A stretch of DNA of 33,463 nt from a virus (lineage: Duplodnaviria > Heunggongvirae > Uroviricota > Caudoviricetes). A program made the translations under genes and the position numbers. Below, one piece after another: positions 25,417 to 29,938 of the stretch (position 1 is its first letter; every line of letters begins with the position of its first letter). The notes under the pieces are model-generated. The model was not told where the DNA came from, searched no databases, and was given only the letters and a program-made list of their open reading frames with translations. The stretch is from positions 1-33,463 of IMG/VR virus record IMGVR_UViG_2548876860_000012; one strand, 5' to 3'.

Positions 25417-25532
25417 ACCTTTCTCCTCCGAAATTCAGAGGGATGATGCTACTTAAAATAGCAAAATGCAACTACTTAAAATAGAAATGACTAGCGTATG
25501 TGATGCGAGTAATCTTCTACCTATGGTAGAAG
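25417..25532. promoter_or_regulatory. Divergent immunity promoter/operator region (OR-like)
   Basis: Two copies of the 13-mer CTACTTAAAATAG 23 bp apart (25449-25461 and 25472-25484) between cro-like and cI-like genes, plus an inverted repeat CTTCTACC-TAT-GGTAGAAG at 25514-25532. Confidence 0.6.
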
Positions 25533-26227
25533 AACAGAAGTATCCAGATTTCGCCAAGAGACTAAACGAGCTAATGACAAACAAGGGAATTTCTGTCACC
25601 CAACTCAAAAGTCTTGTGGGCGTTACATATGAAATGGCGCGGCGATACACAATCGGCGCTGCGAAGCCTCGTGCCTCTGTCATGAATAAACTTGCATTGG
25701 CTCTGGGGGTATCAGCTTCATATTTAGAATATGGTGTTGGCGAGAGAGAAGGATGTAAGGAAATGGCAAGCATCCCCAATCCAACAAAACCCGATGTATA
25801 CAGGATAGAAGTTTTGGATCTTAGCGTTAGCGCAGGACCTGGGACCTATATGCTTTCAGACTATGTTGATGTGCTCTACGCCATTGAGTTCACAACAGAG
25901 CATGCCCGTTCTCTTTTCGGTAATCGTTCTCAAGATGATATTAAAGTTATGACTGTAAATGGCGACAGCATGTCCCCTACTCTAGTTTCCGGAGATCGAC
26001 TGTTTGTCGACATTTCTGTTCGCAACTTCCAAACTGATGGTGTTTACTCTTTCGTTTATGGTAAGACGTTCCACGTTAAACGTCTACAAATGCAAGGCAA
26101 CAAACTCGCCGTTCTTTCGGATAATCCAGCCTATGAGAAATGGTACATTGATGAGAAGTCCCAAGATCAACTTTATGTTATGGGCAAAGCATTGATACAC
26201 GAATCAATTAAATACAACCGGCTTTAG
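25466..26227 (+). CDS. CI-type prophage repressor (HTH plus S24 LexA-like peptidase domain)
   Basis: 253-aa ORF with an HTH N-terminus (ISVTQLKSLVGVTYEMARRY) and S24 motif VNGDSMSPTL. Start is ambiguous (25466 or the internal ATG at 25523). Confidence 0.8.
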   Translation: MQLLKIEMTSVCDASNLLPMVEEQKYPDFAKRLNELMTNKGISVTQLKSLVGVTYEMARRYTIGAAKPRASVMNKLALALGVSASYLEYGVGEREGCKEMASIPNPTKPDVYRIEVLDLSVSAGPGTYMLSDYVDVLYAIEFTTEHARSLFGNRSQDDIKVMTVNGDSMSPTLVSGDRLFVDISVRNFQTDGVYSFVYGKTFHVKRLQMQGNKLAVLSDNPAYEKWYIDEKSQDQLYVMGKALIHESIKYNRL

Positions 26228-26397: not shown

Positions 26398-27474
26398 ATG
26401 ACAAAATCAATTTGTTTTTTTAATCATAAAGGTGGGGTAAGTAAAACCACAACAACCTTCAATCTTGGATGGGCACTTGCGGATGAAGGCAAGAAAGTAT
26501 TGATGGTTGACCTTGATTCGCAATGTAATCTAACAGGAATGGTTCTTGGCTATGAAAAGATTGATGAGGGTTTAGATTCTTTTTATTCTAGCAGAGATAA
26601 CTTAACTCTTGGACCTATTGTAGAATATTTGATTAATGGCGGACAACCTGAAGCATACCTTGAAAAAGAAACGGGAAAATTACACCCTACACTGCATGAA
26701 AACCTTCTGCTTCTTCCCGGACATTTAGATGTTTCGGACTTAGATTCACAGATAAGTGTTTCTCTAAAAATTGCTGCTGGTATTCCTGCTACAAGAAATA
26801 TACCAGGGAACCTGCCAAAAATATTACAGCTAATCGCCTTGAAGAATAATATTGATTACATTCTTTATGATCTCAGCCCTAATGTTGGAGGTTTAAATGA
26901 AGTAGTTCTCATGTCAAGTGACTATTTTATCGTACCTGTAGCTCCAGACTTTTTTTGCTGGCAAGCAATTCGCTCTCTCTCAAAAAATATACCTCGCTGG
27001 CACAAAGAATTAGCATTATTTAAAGAAAATAATGATGGTAACTCTTCACAATCAATTAAAAATGCACCGCAGTTTCTAGGCATGATTCAGCAGAGATACA
27101 GGCCGCGTAAAGGAGCACCTGTAAAATCTTTCGAAAAATGGATGGCAGCTATCCGTGATGCTGTTGATTCGATCTTAGTGCCAAATCTAGAAAAAATTAC
27201 CTGCATAATTCCACGAGATAAAGTGCAACATGCAATTAACAAAACAACAGTCAGTGGAGATTTATCAGCCTATGATCTTGCGCATATTTCCGATTTCAAC
27301 TCATTAATCGCAATAAGCCAACAACTAGCGACACCTGTTTTCTCCATCAGTGATCAGCAAATTCGCGATTCAGGGCAATTTGGGCATGCCTTAAATACAA
27401 TGAAATCAAGCAGAGACGCCTTTAACGAACAATTTAAAGGGCTGGCTCAACGAGTTCTAGAACTTACAAAGTAA
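26398..27474 (+). CDS. Orphan ParA/MinD-family P-loop ATPase
   Basis: 358-aa ORF with deviant Walker A (NHKGGVSKTTTTFNL), A' (VLMVDLDSQ) and B-like (IDYILYDLSPN) motifs and AAGGA Shine-Dalgarno. AT-rich; no ParB-like partner in the window. Confidence 0.7.
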   Translation: MTKSICFFNHKGGVSKTTTTFNLGWALADEGKKVLMVDLDSQCNLTGMVLGYEKIDEGLDSFYSSRDNLTLGPIVEYLINGGQPEAYLEKETGKLHPTLHENLLLLPGHLDVSDLDSQISVSLKIAAGIPATRNIPGNLPKILQLIALKNNIDYILYDLSPNVGGLNEVVLMSSDYFIVPVAPDFFCWQAIRSLSKNIPRWHKELALFKENNDGNSSQSIKNAPQFLGMIQQRYRPRKGAPVKSFEKWMAAIRDAVDSILVPNLEKITCIIPRDKVQHAINKTTVSGDLSAYDLAHISDFNSLIAISQQLATPVFSISDQQIRDSGQFGHALNTMKSSRDAFNEQFKGLAQRVLELTK

Positions 27475-27481
27475 TGCATGT

Positions 27482-27515
27482 GCCCGGCCGCATAACCGGG
27501 CTTTACTCTTCTTTC
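27482..27515 (+). terminator. Rho-independent terminator after the ParA-like gene
   Basis: GCCCGG-ccgcataa-CCGGGC hairpin followed by the T-rich tract TTTACTCTTCTTTCT, starting 8 nt after the stop codon. Confidence 0.55.
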
Positions 27516-27694
27516 TCCCTGATTAATCTCATAAAAAACTCCCTCCTCATAATTCACTATGCTCAATACCTACTCCAACTTCGTGCGATATTTTCAGTTT
27601 ACAGCATAGTAAATCAGCAAAAACATTTAACTTTCAATTAATTATAGAAAAATCATAGACAACAACAAATATCTACTTTTTGTTGTTGATTTTT

Positions 27695-27717
27695 GCTACT
27701 TTAAGTAGCAATATAAT
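27695..27717 (+). promoter_or_regulatory. OL/pL-like operator-promoter
   Basis: 15-bp palindrome GCTACTTTAAGTAGC (27695-27709), closely related to the OR repeat, immediately upstream of a perfect TATAAT (27712-27717). Confidence 0.55.
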
Positions 27718-27918
27718 GTAAGCTATCACGGACAGGCAGGACGCCCACGAAGTAGCCGCCTGGGGCATATGAAGTCCAGGATGATTCGTTGAGTCATGTT
27801 GTGCCACTAGGCACTCATGTTAAAGCAGGTGTATGAAATGAAAGTCCAGATTTTAAACAATAACTGTGAAGTCGTTTGGGCGTAAAACATGACCGCGCGT
27901 AGACCAAGGGAGGAAAAA

Positions 27919-28095
27919 GTGGGAATAGTTAGAAATCAAGCAGATATATTGAAAATCAGCTCTGAATTGCTTGGAGTTTTGAAAAGTGAGCTCACCGCAC
28001 ATGGCATCGAGCCCACTGACGAAAATTTAAGTTGGGTTTTGTCGATTATTCAACAATCACTCAAGCCCAGCCTCAGCAAACTTTTTATCGAGTAG
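27919..28095 (+). CDS. Small hypothetical protein, first ORF of the early-left operon
   Basis: Track ORF 27889-28095; preferred start is GTG at 27919, preceded by AAGGGAGG at 27906-27913. Not Arg-rich, so not N-like. Confidence 0.35.
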   Translation: MGIVRNQADILKISSELLGVLKSELTAHGIEPTDENLSWVLSIIQQSLKPSLSKLFIE

Positions 28096-28248
28096 TGCTT
28101 CGAACTTATCGTAAAGCTTGCTTATGTCGTCTATCGGGTTTTCTGACGTACTGTAATTTTTATCTGATGTCATGGCAGCAGTCTGATATGCAGTGTGAGT
28201 CTTAACCGATAGTTGGAATAAATAAAGAATTTTTTCTTCTTTGGTCAT
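28057..28248 (-). CDS. Small hypothetical protein antisense to the early-left operon
   Basis: ATG at 28248 with AAGGAA Shine-Dalgarno 7 nt upstream (MTKEEKILYLFQLSVKTHTAYQTAAMTSDKNYSTSENPIDDISKLYDKFEALLDKKFAEAGLE); 3' ends converge on and overlap the 27919-28095 ORF. Confidence 0.35.
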   Translation of the reverse strand: MTKEEKILYLFQLSVKTHTAYQTAAMTSDKNYSTSENPIDDISKLYDKFEALLDKKFAEAGLE

Positions 28249-28449
28249 AACTATTTCCTTCTTGGCTATATGAAAACACCAAGATACCACCGAGCCTGAA
28301 GTGGTGAAAAGACAGGCACATAACAGCTAAGTATTTTCAACCAGAGAGAATCCTTAGCGTTGTGGTGAATGCGGCTCAGCGCACGCGGGTTAAGGTTGAG
28401 ACTGACAGTCGACCTTCTGTGGATACCCACCCGCCTGGTGTGCAACCTT

Positions 28450-28637
28450 CGCCAGGCACCGGGAGGCACCCGGCACCACAACTTTATGCTGTGTGTAGTC
28501 CTGGCGGTACCAGCTTGTACCCTTGCTTCCGGCTGGTACCTCCTTTTTACAAAACAGAGAAGAGCATCACCGGACGACGGGCTCATAACCCAATCCATCC
28601 GGGCGGCGGCCACCACAGGTGTTCTTCTCTGTTTTGT
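28450..28637 (+). ncRNA. Candidate structured RNA element in the pL operon leader
   Basis: GC-rich island with nested inverted repeats: CGCCAGG (28450-56) / CCTGGCG (28500-06); GGTACCAGC (28506-14) / GCTGGTACC (28532-40) followed by TCCTTTTTAC; perfect 15-bp repeat 28549-28563 / 28623-28637 around a 49-nt core. Its translation is Pro/Gly/Arg/His-rich and implausible as protein. Confidence 0.4.
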
Positions 28638-28685
28638 GGAGAAACTAATCGGCCTTGCAGGGTCGATATGATGAGGAGCAGCAAA

Positions 28686-29048
28686 ATGGCTAGCGAACGC
28701 AGTACTGATGTGCAGGCATTTATCGGGGAGCTGGACGGCGGCGTATTTGAAACCAAAATCGGCGCAGTTCTCAGTGAAGTCGCTTCCGGTGTGATGAACA
28801 CGAAAACCAAAGGTAAGGTCTCACTCAACCTGGAAATCGAACCATTTGATGAGAACCGTGTGAAAATCAAACACAAACTCTCATATGTTCGCCCGACTAA
28901 CCGCGGGAAAATTTCTGAAGAAGACACCACCGAAACGCCGATGTATGTCAATCGCGGTGGTCGCCTGACTATTCTGCAGGAAGACCAGGGACAATTGCTG
29001 ACTCTTGCTGGTGAACCTGACGGAAAACTCCGCGCAGCAGGTCATTAA
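28686..29048 (+). CDS. YfdP-like hypothetical protein (120 aa)
   Basis: Start moved to the ATG at 28686 (GAGGAG Shine-Dalgarno upstream); length and position ahead of the yfdQ/yfdR-like genes match the CPS-53 yfdP arrangement as recalled. Confidence 0.5.
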   Translation: MASERSTDVQAFIGELDGGVFETKIGAVLSEVASGVMNTKTKGKVSLNLEIEPFDENRVKIKHKLSYVRPTNRGKISEEDTTETPMYVNRGGRLTILQEDQGQLLTLAGEPDGKLRAAGH

Positions 29049-29113
29049 TATCGTTCTTAATTAACTGATTATTTATCTCATCACTGAATATCTTTATATA
29101 GTGAGGACTTATT

Positions 29114-29938
29114 ATGTCTCAGAACTTAGACGCAACCGCAATTAATCAAATCCATGCTCTTATTTCTGCTCAGGGTGTTAATGAAATTATCAGTAAGATT
29201 GGTGCCGATGCTGTGGCATTGCCTGAGAATTTCCGCATTCATGATCTGGAAAAATTTAATTTAAATCGCTTCCGTTTCCGTGGTGCGCTTTCCACTGCCA
29301 GCATCGATGACTTTACCCGTTATTCTAAAGATCTTGCAGATGAAGGCACCCGCTGCTTTATCGATGCTGATAATATGCGTGCCGTCAGTGTGCTTAACCT
29401 GGGTACTATTGATGAACCAGGTCACGCAGATAACACCGCCACTCTCAAACTGAAAAAGACAGCACCGTTCTCTGCACTGTTGTCTGTTAACAGCGAGCGT
29501 AACTCCCAGAAGTCACTGGCAGAATGGATTGAAGACTGGGCCGACTACCTTGTGGGTTTTGATGCTAATGGTGACGCTATCCAGGCAACAAAAGCGGCTG
29601 CGGCTGTCCGTAAAATCACGATTGAAGCAAACCAGACCGCTGATTTTGAAGATAATGACTTCAGCGGCAAACGCTCCCTGATGGAGTCTGTCGAAGCGAA
29701 GACCAAAGACATTATGCCAGTGGCATTTGAATTTAAATGCGTTCCGTTTGAAGGTCTGAAAGAACGTTCTTTTAAATTACGCCTCAGCATTATCACTGGC
29801 GATCGTCCTGTACTTGTTCTGCGCATTATTCAGCTGGAGGCGGTGCAGGAAGAAATGGCTAACGAATTTCGCGATCTGCTTGTTGAGAAATTCAAAGACA
29901 GCAAAGTAGAAACCTTTATTGGTACTTTCACCGCCTGA
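29114..29938 (+). CDS. yfdQ: YfdQ-like protein (DUF2303 family)
   Basis: 274-aa ORF, the same length as E. coli YfdQ as recalled, followed by an HD-domain YfdR-like gene. Confidence 0.55.

Follow-up and report, generated by a model that had tools for sequence, protein, structure and literature searches.

The GC-rich stretch at 28300-28685 of the window (the whole stretch of DNA analysed, 33,463 nucleotides) is non-coding. It is a mosaic of four RNA modules: a small hairpin, a pseudoknotted domain, an sRNA module and a 24-bp hairpin, with a further small hairpin in the yfdP leader. The domain at 28359-28482 is a divergent type-2 relative of the prophage sRNA STnc100. We consider it probable, with some reserve, that the region is a non-coding multi-module RNA of the pL operon, whose main product would be a terminator-ended sRNA driven from pL; transcription into yfdP-xis-int would be attenuated as well. 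An sRNA was one of several alternatives named in the first-pass annotation, and it fits best: the core is a sub-threshold STnc100 relative, and an RprA seed on a DicF-like terminator appears to follow it.

Early-left position and RNA folding of the region

The stretch lies on the + strand directly upstream of yfdP, in the early-left operon of a lambda-like prophage. The features of the region and of its upstream promoter are collected in Table 1. The OL operator with its -10 hexamer (27693..27717) we take to be the early-left promoter pL, with a start near 27724 as read from the sequence. This OL operator is a repeat of the OR operators found between the cro-like and cI-like genes (25447-63 and 25472-87), and a layout of OL followed by the element is also found in e14, ST64B and the locus L001. 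A simple promoter and terminator scan of 27400-29200 returned zero promoters. The 124-nt domain is located about 600 nt downstream of pL, in the early-left arm between the cI-like gene with pL and yfdP. The region does lie in the early-left operon, as the first-pass annotation had it. The yfdP gene belongs to phrog_204, of unknown function. The family of the first pL ORF, phrog_2982, is also of unknown function and is not Arg-rich, and the earlier statement that no N-like protein is evident in the operon stands.

Table 1. Features of the 28300-28685 region and of the promoter upstream of it, in window coordinates
Feature	Position	Strand	Sequence	Notes
OL operator palindrome	27694-27710 (feature span 27693..27717)	+	TGCTACTTTAAGTAGCA	from sequence
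-10 hexamer	27712-17	+	TATAAT	perfect; 3' of OL palindrome
Small hairpin	28326..28358	+	GCUAAGUAUUUUC / GAGAAUCCUUAGC	-10.4 kcal/mol, z -4.81; abuts 5' side of domain
Type-2 STnc100-like domain	28359..28482	+		124 nt, multi-helix, pseudoknotted; z -3.34
P1 closing helix	28359-67 / 28474-82	+	GUUGUGGUG / CACCACAAC	
J1/2			AAU	between P1 and P2
P2	28371-75 / 28381-86	+		
Pseudoknot	28392-98 with 28443-49	+	AAGGUUG / CAACCUU	
Variable hairpins	28399-28431	+		
P4	28433-40 / 28450-57	+		
P5	28459-63 / 28469-73	+		loop AGGCA
7-bp repeat	28450-56 / 28500-06		CGCCAGG / CCTGGCG	flanks hairpin CCGGG-AGGCA-CCCGG, 28459-73
Single-stranded linker	28483..28502	+	UUUAUGCUGUGUGUAGUCCU	proposed seed
Intrinsic-terminator-like hairpin	28503..28548	+	GGCGGUACCAGC ... 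GCUGGUACCUCC + U5	-23.4 kcal/mol, z -3.31 (both 28483-28552)
Terminator stem	28503-14 / 28532-43		GGCGGTACCAGC / GCTGGTACCTCC	then T5 at 28544-48
Module B	28545..28641	+		24-bp hairpin, 49-nt structured apical part; z -4.88 (28545-28690)
Module B perfect core	28549-66 / 28620-37	+		15-18 bp
Long repeat	28549-66 / 28620-37		ACAAAACAGAGAAGAGCA / TGTTCTTCTCTGTTTTGT	24 pairs counting G-U
Small GC hairpin, yfdP 5' leader	28648..28667	+		from fold; kept in mEp460 and e14
Ribosome binding site	28673-78	+	GAGGAG	yfdP ATG at 28686
ORF, 100 aa	28369-28671	+		ATG at 28369
GTG frame		+		running into yfdP; ORF list
ORF, 116 aa		-		ORF list

The GC content is 0.541 over 28300-28685 and 0.629 in the core (28359-28482), compared with 0.386-0.393 in the left flank, 0.499 in yfdP and 0.512 in the whole window. 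Therefore, the "GC-rich island" of the first-pass annotation holds against the AT-rich, immunity-proximal left flank but not against the window as a whole. Its description of the region as strongly structured was borne out on the + strand, where the folds exceed dinucleotide shuffles (from z -2.88 over 28329-28556 to z -4.88 over 28545-28690), whereas the - strand fold reached z -1.41 only.

All three inverted repeats that had been described were found. They do not form one tandem element, as had been proposed, but belong to separate modules that are found independently in other phages. The closing helix P1 and the pseudoknot had been missed. The 7-bp stem is doubtful because it competes with the covarying helix P4 and with the terminator, and because its complement, by eye, is absent in ST64B and phiES15; it is probably not a real pairing.

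A divergent STnc100-like domain with a covarying pseudoknot

At gathering thresholds Rfam gave zero matches in the window, and STnc100 (RF02076) appeared in a permissive search only, with a full-length match of 41.1 bits (E 4.4e-7), below the cut-off of 47. Other copies also score below threshold, namely phiES15 (40.6 bits) and Qin (34.4 bits) over the full length, e14 (29.2 bits), and ST64B with a partial match of 35.1 bits (model positions 31-147); canonical STnc100 copies score 76-161 bits. Our own covariance model, R1, scored the window at 114.7 bits. A covariance-model and Rfam search with comparative alignment had been suggested in the first-pass annotation, and when this was run, relatives were found in which helices P1, P2, P4 and P5 and the pseudoknot show compensatory change.

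In the R1 alignment 92.5% of cells were paired compared with 79.2% in shuffles, none of 500 shuffles being as high. Both sides had changed in 29 of 37 pairs, and P1, P2, P4 and P5 covaried. P5 alternates between CCGGG/CCCGG and CCUGG/CCAGG from copy to copy. When the whole family (A2) or type 2 (A3) was aligned with MAFFT, P4 and the pseudoknot came out of register between subgroups. Therefore, the covariance-model alignment was used for the nested helices and an alignment-free permutation test for the pseudoknot. This test gave a mean helix of 6.44 bp against 4.78 +/- 0.08 bp, and 0 of 1000 permutations were as high. These data directly support the helices and the pseudoknot. In the accessible parts of the literature on STnc100 and PasD, no mention of a pseudoknot was found.

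The conserved blocks of STnc100 are exact in the window, GGUGAAU at 28364-70 and CACCGGGAGGCACCCGGCACCA at 28457-78, and both are near-invariant in STnc100, PasD1 and PasD2. The shared secondary structure is also present, with the closing helix, P2, P4, P5 and a pseudoknot of J2/3 with the P4 loop (J2/3-L4), in the same helix order of P1, P2, pseudoknot, P4 and P5. A 3' linker and an intrinsic terminator follow in these sRNAs as in the window, and both belong to Enterobacterales lambdoid prophages. The two types differ in the sequence and register of P2, which is GCGGCUCAGCGCACGC in the window and CCCCCUGUGCGGAGGGG in STnc100. The window copy has a terminator but no promoter of its own at P1. 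Type-1 copies carry TTGACN at -38 and, at about -16, a hexamer resembling TAAATT, whereas upstream of the window P1 no promoter-like hexamers are seen. The copy analysed here belongs to the early-left operon, whereas type-1 copies lie between Q (or tRNAs, or stx) and lysis (or nanS-p) genes (PMC12370729; bioRxiv 10.64898/2026.05.13.724894). A reading of the type-1 copies as a "6S-like" pR'-tR' leader was dropped; they lie several hundred nucleotides from Q, are often in tandem and may follow stx (PMC12370729). STnc100 copies are transcribed in EDL933, one of them detected by northern blot (PMC5331693); Hfq RIL-seq revealed the related EPEC sRNAs PasD, and northern blots confirmed them (bioRxiv 10.64898/2026.05.13.724894).

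The small hairpin on the 5' side of the domain is retained in ST64B with a GC-to-AU change (GAUAAGAG / CUCUUAUC). No sigma70-like promoter was found at 28326..28358.

A candidate sRNA with an RprA-type seed and a DicF-type terminator

Within the linker downstream of P1, GCUGUGUGUAGUC (28488-28500) is identical in 13 of 13 nucleotides to the 5' seed of processed RprA (RprA sequence from PMC7311995 and PMC5606850), which is the last 47 nt of this sRNA (PMC9262595). The window contains this 13-mer once, against an expectation of 0 from 100 shuffles. Exact-sequence literature searches found the seed within RprA only, and the 22-mer of 28457-78 had no occurrence in such a search. The seed of processed RprA (UUGCUGUGUGUAGUC) is placed 5' of the terminator in the window. 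When the full 228-nt stretch is folded, the MFE structure leaves the seed unpaired up to G28492, and 28493-98 pair weakly with the tail. The e14, ST64B, phiES15 and Rac-type loci conserve an RprA-type seed, and in Rac-type and phiES15 copies its identity with RprA spans 16 nt.

The 9-bp stem with T-tract that had been called terminator-like proved to be a conserved intrinsic-terminator-like element. In ST64B and F1055 the stem sequence is wholly replaced, yet the U-tract CUUUUUAC is kept. The simple scan missed this terminator because its loop is 17 nt long. In a hand-checked alignment it matches K-12 DicF (UGGCGGUAUCAG ... CUGCCGCCCUUUUUA), and on this sequence evidence the 28503-48 hairpin is judged homologous to the DicF terminator. 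Rfam DicF and Rfam RprA gave no match to the window at E<=10; the e14 copy scored 28.5 bits on DicF, below the cut-off of 48, and the phiES15 copy 41 bits on RprA, below the cut-off of 70. The apparent kinship of the window with DicF and RprA rests on the 13-nt identity and the hand-checked alignment.

DicF (RF00039) and the window element are similar in several respects. Both lie in a repressor-controlled early operon of a lambdoid prophage (the Qin dicB operon, on a defective prophage, in the case of DicF), beside a cluster of division-inhibitor-type genes. Both appear to have a homologous terminator hairpin (UGGCGGUAYCAG ... CCGCCCUUUUUA), and both adjoin a type-2 STnc100-like domain. The seeds differ, being GCUGUGUGUAGUC in the window and UUUCUGGUGACG in DicF, and the DicF seed UUUCUGGUGAC is not carried by the window. 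The order is also reversed: in the window the domain precedes the sRNA module, whereas in Qin the sRNA precedes the domain. RprA (RF00034) shares with the window the 13 nt directly 5' of a terminator hairpin. Unlike RprA, which is encoded at the core-genome rprA locus, the window element is on a prophage, has neither the 5' hairpins nor the Rcs-dependent promoter of RprA, and has a DicF-like terminator.

Module B and the yfdP leader

The repeat of 15 bp, said to be extendable with G-U pairs, was confirmed and reaches 24 pairs in module B. One pair of this hairpin is G-U in the window, A-U in L127 and G-C in F1055 and e14, and a second changes from G-C to A-U. The G-U pairs would read as C-A mismatches on the - strand. 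F1055 and Kp4866-6 have module B but lack the upstream domain. The module was also found in mEp460 and Stx2c phages, in which the part upstream of it was diverged or outside the comparison.

Distribution of the domain among prophages

Exact matches to the 22-mer at 28457-78 occur in 110 stretches of species-representative genomes, the majority of them from Enterobacterales, and in >120 viral contigs. This near-invariant sequence is present in phages with unrelated immunity regions. The RNA family of the domain occurs in about 80% of complete E. coli genomes and in three K-12 prophages among them, and its 248 instances nearly always run in the same direction as their neighbours. A DicF or RprA-seed module adjoins the domain in 94 of 119 distinct type-2 loci (DicF upstream in 46, RprA-like upstream in 16 and RprA-like downstream in 32), and this linkage is directly observed, as is the homology of each module.

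In K-12 Qin the type-2 domain separates dicF from dicB, and in Rac-type prophages and phiES15 it precedes kilR and kil, respectively. The gene downstream is often a toxic early gene (dicB, kilR, kil). Two arrangements of the core were seen across representatives. A terminator follows it in the window, e14, ST64B and phiES15, and an RBS and ATG follow 30-50 nt past a P1 of 16-20 bp in Qin dicB, Rac-type kilR and the loci L013 and L019. At Qin- and Rac-type loci the domain comes after the terminator of the sRNA.

Discussion

Our data are consistent with the following pathway. When the cI-like repressor leaves OL, pL would transcribe rightward through a small ORF into the region, and the nascent RNA would fold into the 124-nt STnc100-class pseudoknotted domain, followed by the RprA-type single-stranded seed and the DicF-type intrinsic terminator. 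Most polymerases would halt at 28503-48 and leave a terminator-ended RNA with a predicted 3' end at about 28548 (in e14, after CCGCCCUUUUU). The window copy lacks a promoter of its own, and the 5' end of a discrete sRNA must therefore come from processing. The analogy of DicF and RprA suggests that RNase E or RNase III may trim the transcript to about 220 nt and/or about 65 nt, and the seed shared with processed RprA may act by Hfq-assisted base pairing. The same terminator would attenuate transcription into yfdP-yfdQ-yfdR...xis-int. Read-through RNA would carry module B and the yfdP-leader hairpin, which probably serve in processing or stability. Given an efficient terminator, a further factor must let polymerase reach xis and int. 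In this pathway we infer the transcript ends, processing, Hfq dependence, targets and attenuation, as well as the specific job of the pseudoknotted domain.

Base-pairing sRNAs are usually simpler than a 124-nt pseudoknotted domain with near-invariant junctions. This elaborateness, and the RBS found after the domain at Qin- and Rac-type loci, suggest a further or a different role in cis. The domain might be mainly a cis-acting, aptamer-like leader that binds a host factor or small molecule and gates the downstream gene, with the sRNA module as a separate neighbour. We regard this as unlikely, although it is the likeliest of the alternatives. The complex junction and pseudoknot would suit such a role, and J1/2, the P2 loop and the P5 loop are near-invariant across genera while the helices covary. 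The same core is joined to a terminator-type or an RBS-type downstream platform, which is typical of riboswitch-like elements. Because the 22-mer is shared by phages with unrelated immunity regions, the partner would be expected in the host and not in the phage. In the group of copies to which the window belongs, AAGGUUG has two pairing options, one local (28410-16) and the other in the pseudoknot. However, no conserved alternative pairing of the antiterminator or anti-RBS kind was apparent by eye, CGCCAGG/CCUGGCG being absent in ST64B and phiES15. No candidate ligand or protein is known, and type-1 copies have the appearance of independent units, from promoter to terminator, whose RNAs accumulate. 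More broadly, and with only a modest chance in our estimate, the STnc100-class fold may be a widespread cis sensor or processing domain in front of toxic early genes, coupled to DicF- and RprA-seed modules, in which the P5 loop, J1/2 and the P2 loop bind a host factor or metabolite and so decide the progress of polymerase or ribosome. If so, expression of Kil-type genes and mimicry of host sRNAs would be under one RNA device in about 80% of complete E. coli genomes.

The first-pass annotation had raised an analogue of HK022 put, a cis-acting processive antiterminator with which RNA polymerase would read through 28503-48 and later early-left terminators. In both cases a structured nascent RNA is found in an early operon of a lambdoid phage with no recognisable N; in the window it is co-oriented with the operon, as the family instances almost always are with their neighbours, and a strong terminator stands ahead of all delayed-early genes. 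Homology to HK022 put was not detected: R1 found nothing in the HK022 immunity region (E<=0.01), which contains put, and the HK022 pL/putL region gave no match to a model of the pL leader (R2) and was also compared by eye with the pL leader of the window. The architecture differs as well, since put RNA has about 70 nt and two stem-loops just downstream of the promoter (PMC9378689), whereas the window domain is 124 nt long, combines five helices with a pseudoknot, and is about 600 nt away from pL. In the family, many copies stand alone as genes with an apparent promoter of their own, and the Qin copy, like the Rac-type ones, is downstream of an sRNA terminator and not before it; neither is the arrangement that a cis antiterminator needs. 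Type-1 relatives, which seem to start at a promoter and end at a terminator of their own and to build up as short RNAs, do the opposite of self-antitermination. A put-like function is very improbable. Antitermination through the 7-bp stem was also considered and was dropped, its complement being absent by eye from ST64B and phiES15.

Coding by the region can be almost entirely discounted. The first-pass annotation had called the region non-coding, with a single reading frame giving an implausible peptide. In fact several ORFs are present (Table 1), but none is conserved among 31 close variants, and the 100-aa ORF has no Pfam match. A YmfH-like small protein of about 100 aa might be supposed, in that a 90%-identical stretch of K-12 e14, its copy of the domain, is annotated as protein YmfH, the window keeps an intact 100-aa ORF, and an expression clone of ymfH triggers the toxin of retron-Sen2 (bioRxiv 10.1101/2020.06.22.160242). 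This phenotype could equally come from RNA. The ATG frame of the 31 variants ends after 7, 10, 17, 41, 42, 73, 93, 100, 112 or >137 codons. The frame in ST64B stops after 7 or 19 codons, and the "ymfH" frame of e14 differs from the ATG frame of the window. PGAP annotates the stretch as "hypothetical protein, frameshifted", in other strains too, and the substitutions keep the RNA helices. In the literature ymfH has incidental mentions only; ymfH-xisE-intE lies within the e14 induction iModulon (PMC12132413). A site acting as DNA (recombination, origin, packaging) or a decayed mobile-element remnant, an idea to which the mosaic breakpoints where modules meet and the long perfect inverted repeat (28549-66 / 28620-37) might lead, is just as improbable, as G-U pairs are tolerated on the + strand only, the elements are almost always co-oriented with transcription, five helices carry compensatory changes, and neither an associated recombinase pattern nor target-site duplications were seen.

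Our study indicates that a conserved structured RNA lies behind the ymfH annotation of K-12 e14 and the calls of a frameshifted hypothetical protein. Pipelines based on Rfam overlook the whole type-2 subfamily because its scores fall below the STnc100 threshold. The type-2 domain occupies the uncharacterised dicF-dicB spacer of K-12 Qin and precedes kilR in Rac-type prophages, and these loci are still studied for the silencing of toxic cryptic-prophage genes. The pseudoknot supported by covariation and the near-invariant loops together suggest a specific partner. A prophage RNA with the exact seed of processed RprA suggests that derepression of the prophage may be accompanied by mimicry of a host regulator of envelope stress and biofilm formation.

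Results

The region (28300-28685) is placed inside the early-left operon of a lambda-like prophage of the SfV/e14/CPS-53 type. A third copy of the repressor operator, followed directly by a perfect TATAAT, is taken to be OL/pL (left operator and early-left promoter) and would fire rightward from about 27724, which puts the region about 600 nt from pL. This placement is based on OL/pL upstream and on the layout of OL, a few hundred nt and then the element, which recurs with unrelated operators in e14, ST64B and strain 82.0311.

Immunity and early-left features of the window
Feature	Position	Strand	Remark
cII-like and cro-like genes		-	leftmost of the immunity genes, going rightward
OR (right) operators, TGCTACTTAAAATAGCA	25447-63 and 25472-87
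cI-like S24 repressor	25466-26227	+
ParA-like gene (ParA/AAA_31-type ATPase)	26398-27474	+
Terminator-like hairpin of ParA-like gene	27482-27501
Operator, third copy	27694-27710		TATAAT at 27712-17
Conserved leader	27727-27790		directly downstream of pL
68-aa ORF	27889-28095	+	downstream of pL
63-aa ORF	28057-28248	-	PGAP call; overlaps 68-aa ORF on opposite strand
Small hairpin	28326-58		in front of domain
Pseudoknotted domain	28359-28482
sRNA module	28483-28548
Long hairpin	28545-28641		24 bp, 49-nt apical part; ahead of yfdP RBS
Small hairpin	28648-67		ahead of yfdP RBS
yfdP	ATG 28686		then yfdQ, yfdR

The ParA-like gene, which separates the cI-like repressor from OL/pL, occupies the place that rexAB has in lambda; it may therefore be a moron or defence gene expressed in the lysogen. 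The 68-aa ORF, in place of which PGAP annotates the 63-aa ORF, has a match confined to the C-terminal part of phrog_2982, a family that includes e14 YmfJ and phiES15 gp10, in each case the gene nearest downstream of pL; phrog_2982 is without N-like Arg-richness and has no assigned function. In some E. coli strains (873.10 and 730V1; L002 3000-3770), an insertion of ~650 bp with a 91-aa hypothetical gene splits a conserved block just upstream of the element, and pL-proximal sequence is partly duplicated. On the other side of its immunity region, ST64B carries a C4 antisense RNA (79.7 bits) adjoining isrK (64.3 bits; L004 409-597, - strand).

The leader after pL (~62 nt; counterparts in e14, L003 3262-3342; ST64B, L004 2660-2745; L238 1468-1545) has the layout GCGAACAGGCAGGACGCCCACGAAGUAGCCGCC-hairpin-GGAUGAUUCGC. 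It is predicted to fold into a closing helix and two hairpins, the second of which covaries (CCUGG/CCAGG, CCGGU/ACCGG, CCCGA/UCGGG). Of the leader and the region itself, the leader is the stronger candidate for a nut- or put-like site on account of its position; its covariance model gave no match to HK022 putL/putR or lambda.

The first-pass annotation described a GC-rich, non-coding island with three inverted repeats. The repeats are all in place. The GC contrast held against the left flank (0.54 for the region vs 0.39), weakened on the right (0.50 falling to 0.44) and was lost against the window average of 0.51; the core reaches 0.63. Separate parts fold more stably than shuffled sequence on the + strand (z -2.9 to -4.9), and the - strand has no excess (z -1.4). 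Comparison of reading frames indicates that the region is indeed not coding: the frame from ATG 28369 ends after 7 to >137 codons among 31 close variants and stops at once in ST64B, the K-12 e14 'ymfH' frame differs from that of the window's 100-aa ORF, and PGAP marks other copies as frameshifted. Among 5426 complete E. coli genomes, 2865 have matches to parts of the region and 1815 carry 80% of it or more; it is also found in the cultured phages SfV, SfII, SfIV, PhiR29, ST64B and phiES15.

Phage BLAST splits the region into blocks that occur independently: 28343-28648 in ST64B (76% identity), 28360-28500 in phiES15, 28502-28690 in mEp460, cdtI and Stx2c phages, and 28542-28648 in F1055 and a Klebsiella phage. 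It was therefore treated as four modules, namely the domain, the sRNA module and the two hairpins ahead of yfdP.

A permissive Rfam search gave one significant match, STnc100 (RF02076, full model; E 4.4e-7), at 41.1 bits, below the curated cut-off of 47 bits. The alignment is anchored by GGUGAAU and the 22-mer CACCGGGAGGCACCCGGCACCA, which is exact in more than 120 IMG/VR contigs and in 110 stretches of species-representative genomes, mostly Enterobacterales (Kosakonia, Enterobacter, Klebsiella, Citrobacter, Pantoea, Erwinia, Buttiauxella and others). These matches yielded 164 distinct cores of 57-131 nt and two types. Type 1, the majority, reads GGUGAAU-CCCCCUGUGCGGAGGGG and scores 76-161 bits against STnc100; type 2, which includes the window, reads GGUGAAU-GCGGCUNAGCGCACGCGG and scores 29-41 bits. 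A further 62 distinct type-2 cores came from a second scan, which used the type-2 signature. R1, a covariance model of the type-2 domain, found 103 copies in 100 loci (window 114.7, ST64B 117, e14 101.5, phiES15 98.9 and K-12 Qin 147.5 bits).

The R1 alignment bears out the proposed structure, with conserved helices (92.5% of cells paired vs 79.2% in shuffles, 0/500 as high) and compensatory changes (29 of 37 pairs vary on both sides; covariation score 0.274 vs 0.03-0.06 for slid registers). Helix P5 alternates CCGGG/CCCGG with CCUGG/CCAGG (third pair UA 38, GC 21) around a constant AGGCA loop, and P1 varies in length, with 9 bp in the window against about 20 bp in Qin- and Rac-type copies. 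A fifth helix is a pseudoknot in which the strand after P2 pairs with the P4 loop: AAGGUUG/CAACCUU in the window, AAGGCUG/CAGCCUU in phiES15, CAGUUAA/UUAACUG in Qin, AGACUGACA/UGUCAGUCU in locus L088 and AUCAGC/GCUGAU in type 1. The mean longest helix is 6.44 bp vs 4.78 +/- 0.08 with loops permuted (163 distinct combinations; maximum 5.10 bp in 1000 permutations), and helices of at least 6 bp number 135 vs 45 expected, with 73 different helices; the sequences are related, and the figures from the pairing, covariation and pseudoknot tests are not true probabilities. Because of the slid-register control and the helix diversity, the predicted structure, pseudoknot included, is nevertheless convincing. 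In the window/e14/ST64B subgroup AAGGUUG has two partners, the nearby CGACCUU (a local hairpin at 28392-28416, the MFE choice) and the P4 loop (28443-28449, the family-wide pseudoknot), and this alternative pairing could be a structural switch.

Next comes the linker UUUAUGCUGUGUGUAGUC, whose conservation extends to e14, ST64B, F1055, phiES15 and Rac-type loci. The window contains its 13-mer GCUGUGUGUAGUC a single time (0 expected by chance), and in the searchable literature the 13-mer was found inside RprA only. There it lies at the 5' end of the processed form of 47 nt, a functional species in itself (PMC9262595). The next hairpin aligns with the DicF terminator (UGGCGGUACCAG ... CC(U)CCUUUUUA vs UGGCGGUAUCAG ... 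GCCGCCCUUUUUA). In this chimeric module an RprA seed is joined to a DicF terminator, and neither Rfam model is reached; the e14 copy gives a weak DicF match and the phiES15 copy a weak RprA match. Among 119 distinct type-2 loci, DicF is immediately upstream of the domain in 46, the RprA-seed module is immediately upstream in 16 and downstream in 32 (window included), and 25 have neither. Domain and seed-plus-terminator sRNA module therefore recur side by side, with either one first.

mEp460, F1055, e14 and ST64B all retain the long hairpin; one of its pairs is G-U, A-U or G-C, another switches from G-C to A-U, and its G-U pairs work on the + strand only. In Qin and Rac loci, which lack it, P1 has its extended form, so a long duplex precedes the downstream ORF in most arrangements examined, phiES15 being the exception. 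This arrangement suggests that the duplex may be a site of processing by RNase III or may stabilise the leader.

Across 248 instances, the genes next to the element nearly always point in its direction. Type 1 is flanked by Q-type antiterminators or phage tRNAs on one side and by holin, lysozyme or nanS-p on the other, usually with TTGACN at -38 and a TAAATT-like hexamer at about -16 from GGUGAAU (pattern-based). From these positions, its RNA would begin at P1 as a stand-alone promoter-to-terminator unit. This agrees with reports that EDL933 transcribes 11 STnc100 copies, with northern-blot confirmation for one (PMC5331693), that RpoD binds at LT2 copies (PMC10794520), that stx2B is followed, 75 nt downstream, by a copy (PMC12370729) and that the family is related to Hfq-bound PasD sRNAs (bioRxiv 10.64898/2026.05.13.724894). 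Canonical copies are often tandem pairs 270-480 bp apart (L131 3121-3798, L057 4825-5482, L187 7149-7610), the first two just downstream of a phage tRNA gene cluster.

Type 2 has no type-1-like promoter and is located in early-left operons, where the gene that follows differs: yfdP for the window copy, xisE for e14, kil for phiES15, dicB at Qin-type and kilR at Rac-type loci. Of 5426 E. coli genomes, 4405 have a match to the kilR-type copy. In K-12 MG1655 the domain fills the spacer from DicF (Rfam 76.7 bits) to the dicB start codon. A published study detected no species running past dicF into dicB, and no discussion of the spacer was found in the section consulted (bioRxiv 10.1101/2023.04.14.536235). 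In lambda, L239 1040-1110 (about nt 44840-44910, between tR' and S) holds gtgctctttccgttgtGCTGAATtaagcgaataCCGGaagcagaaCCGGatcaccaaat, which is not scored by R1 and looks like a decayed type-2 copy; its 16-nt upstream flank matches that of intact type-2 copies, being exact in L028 and having one or two differences in L240.

Discussion

The type-2 domain shares sequence motifs and structure with STnc100/PasD but is below the Rfam threshold and differs in P2, promoter and genomic niche. The first-pass annotation had offered an sRNA as one alternative, and the RprA-type seed and DicF-type terminator make this the reading we prefer, with some reserve: a pL-driven sRNA ending at 28548 that also limits entry into yfdP...xis-int. 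Upon derepression, the domain would form in pL transcripts with the seed exposed, and most of them would terminate at 28548. The resulting sRNA would probably be trimmed as DicF and RprA are, and termination would limit transcription into yfdP...xis-int. The near-invariant loops of the domain, and the fact that it can be followed by either a terminator or an RBS, would also suit a cis-regulatory role for so elaborate a structure, which we consider possible but rather improbable. The proposed analogy to the HK022 antiterminator RNA put is very doubtful, because R1 detects no homology to HK022, the put architecture differs (PMC9378689), Qin- and Rac-type loci have their copies behind the sRNA terminator, and copies stop at a terminator of their own, accumulating as short RNAs.

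Over-expression of 'ymfH' (L003 4063-4374) triggers the retron-Sen2 toxin RcaT (bioRxiv 10.1101/2020.06.22.160242). No conserved protein is encoded there, and the trigger may therefore be the structured RNA rather than a protein. The findings call for correction of the ymfH annotation, provide a type-2 model for databases and lead to testable hypotheses on the control of dicB, kilR and kil.
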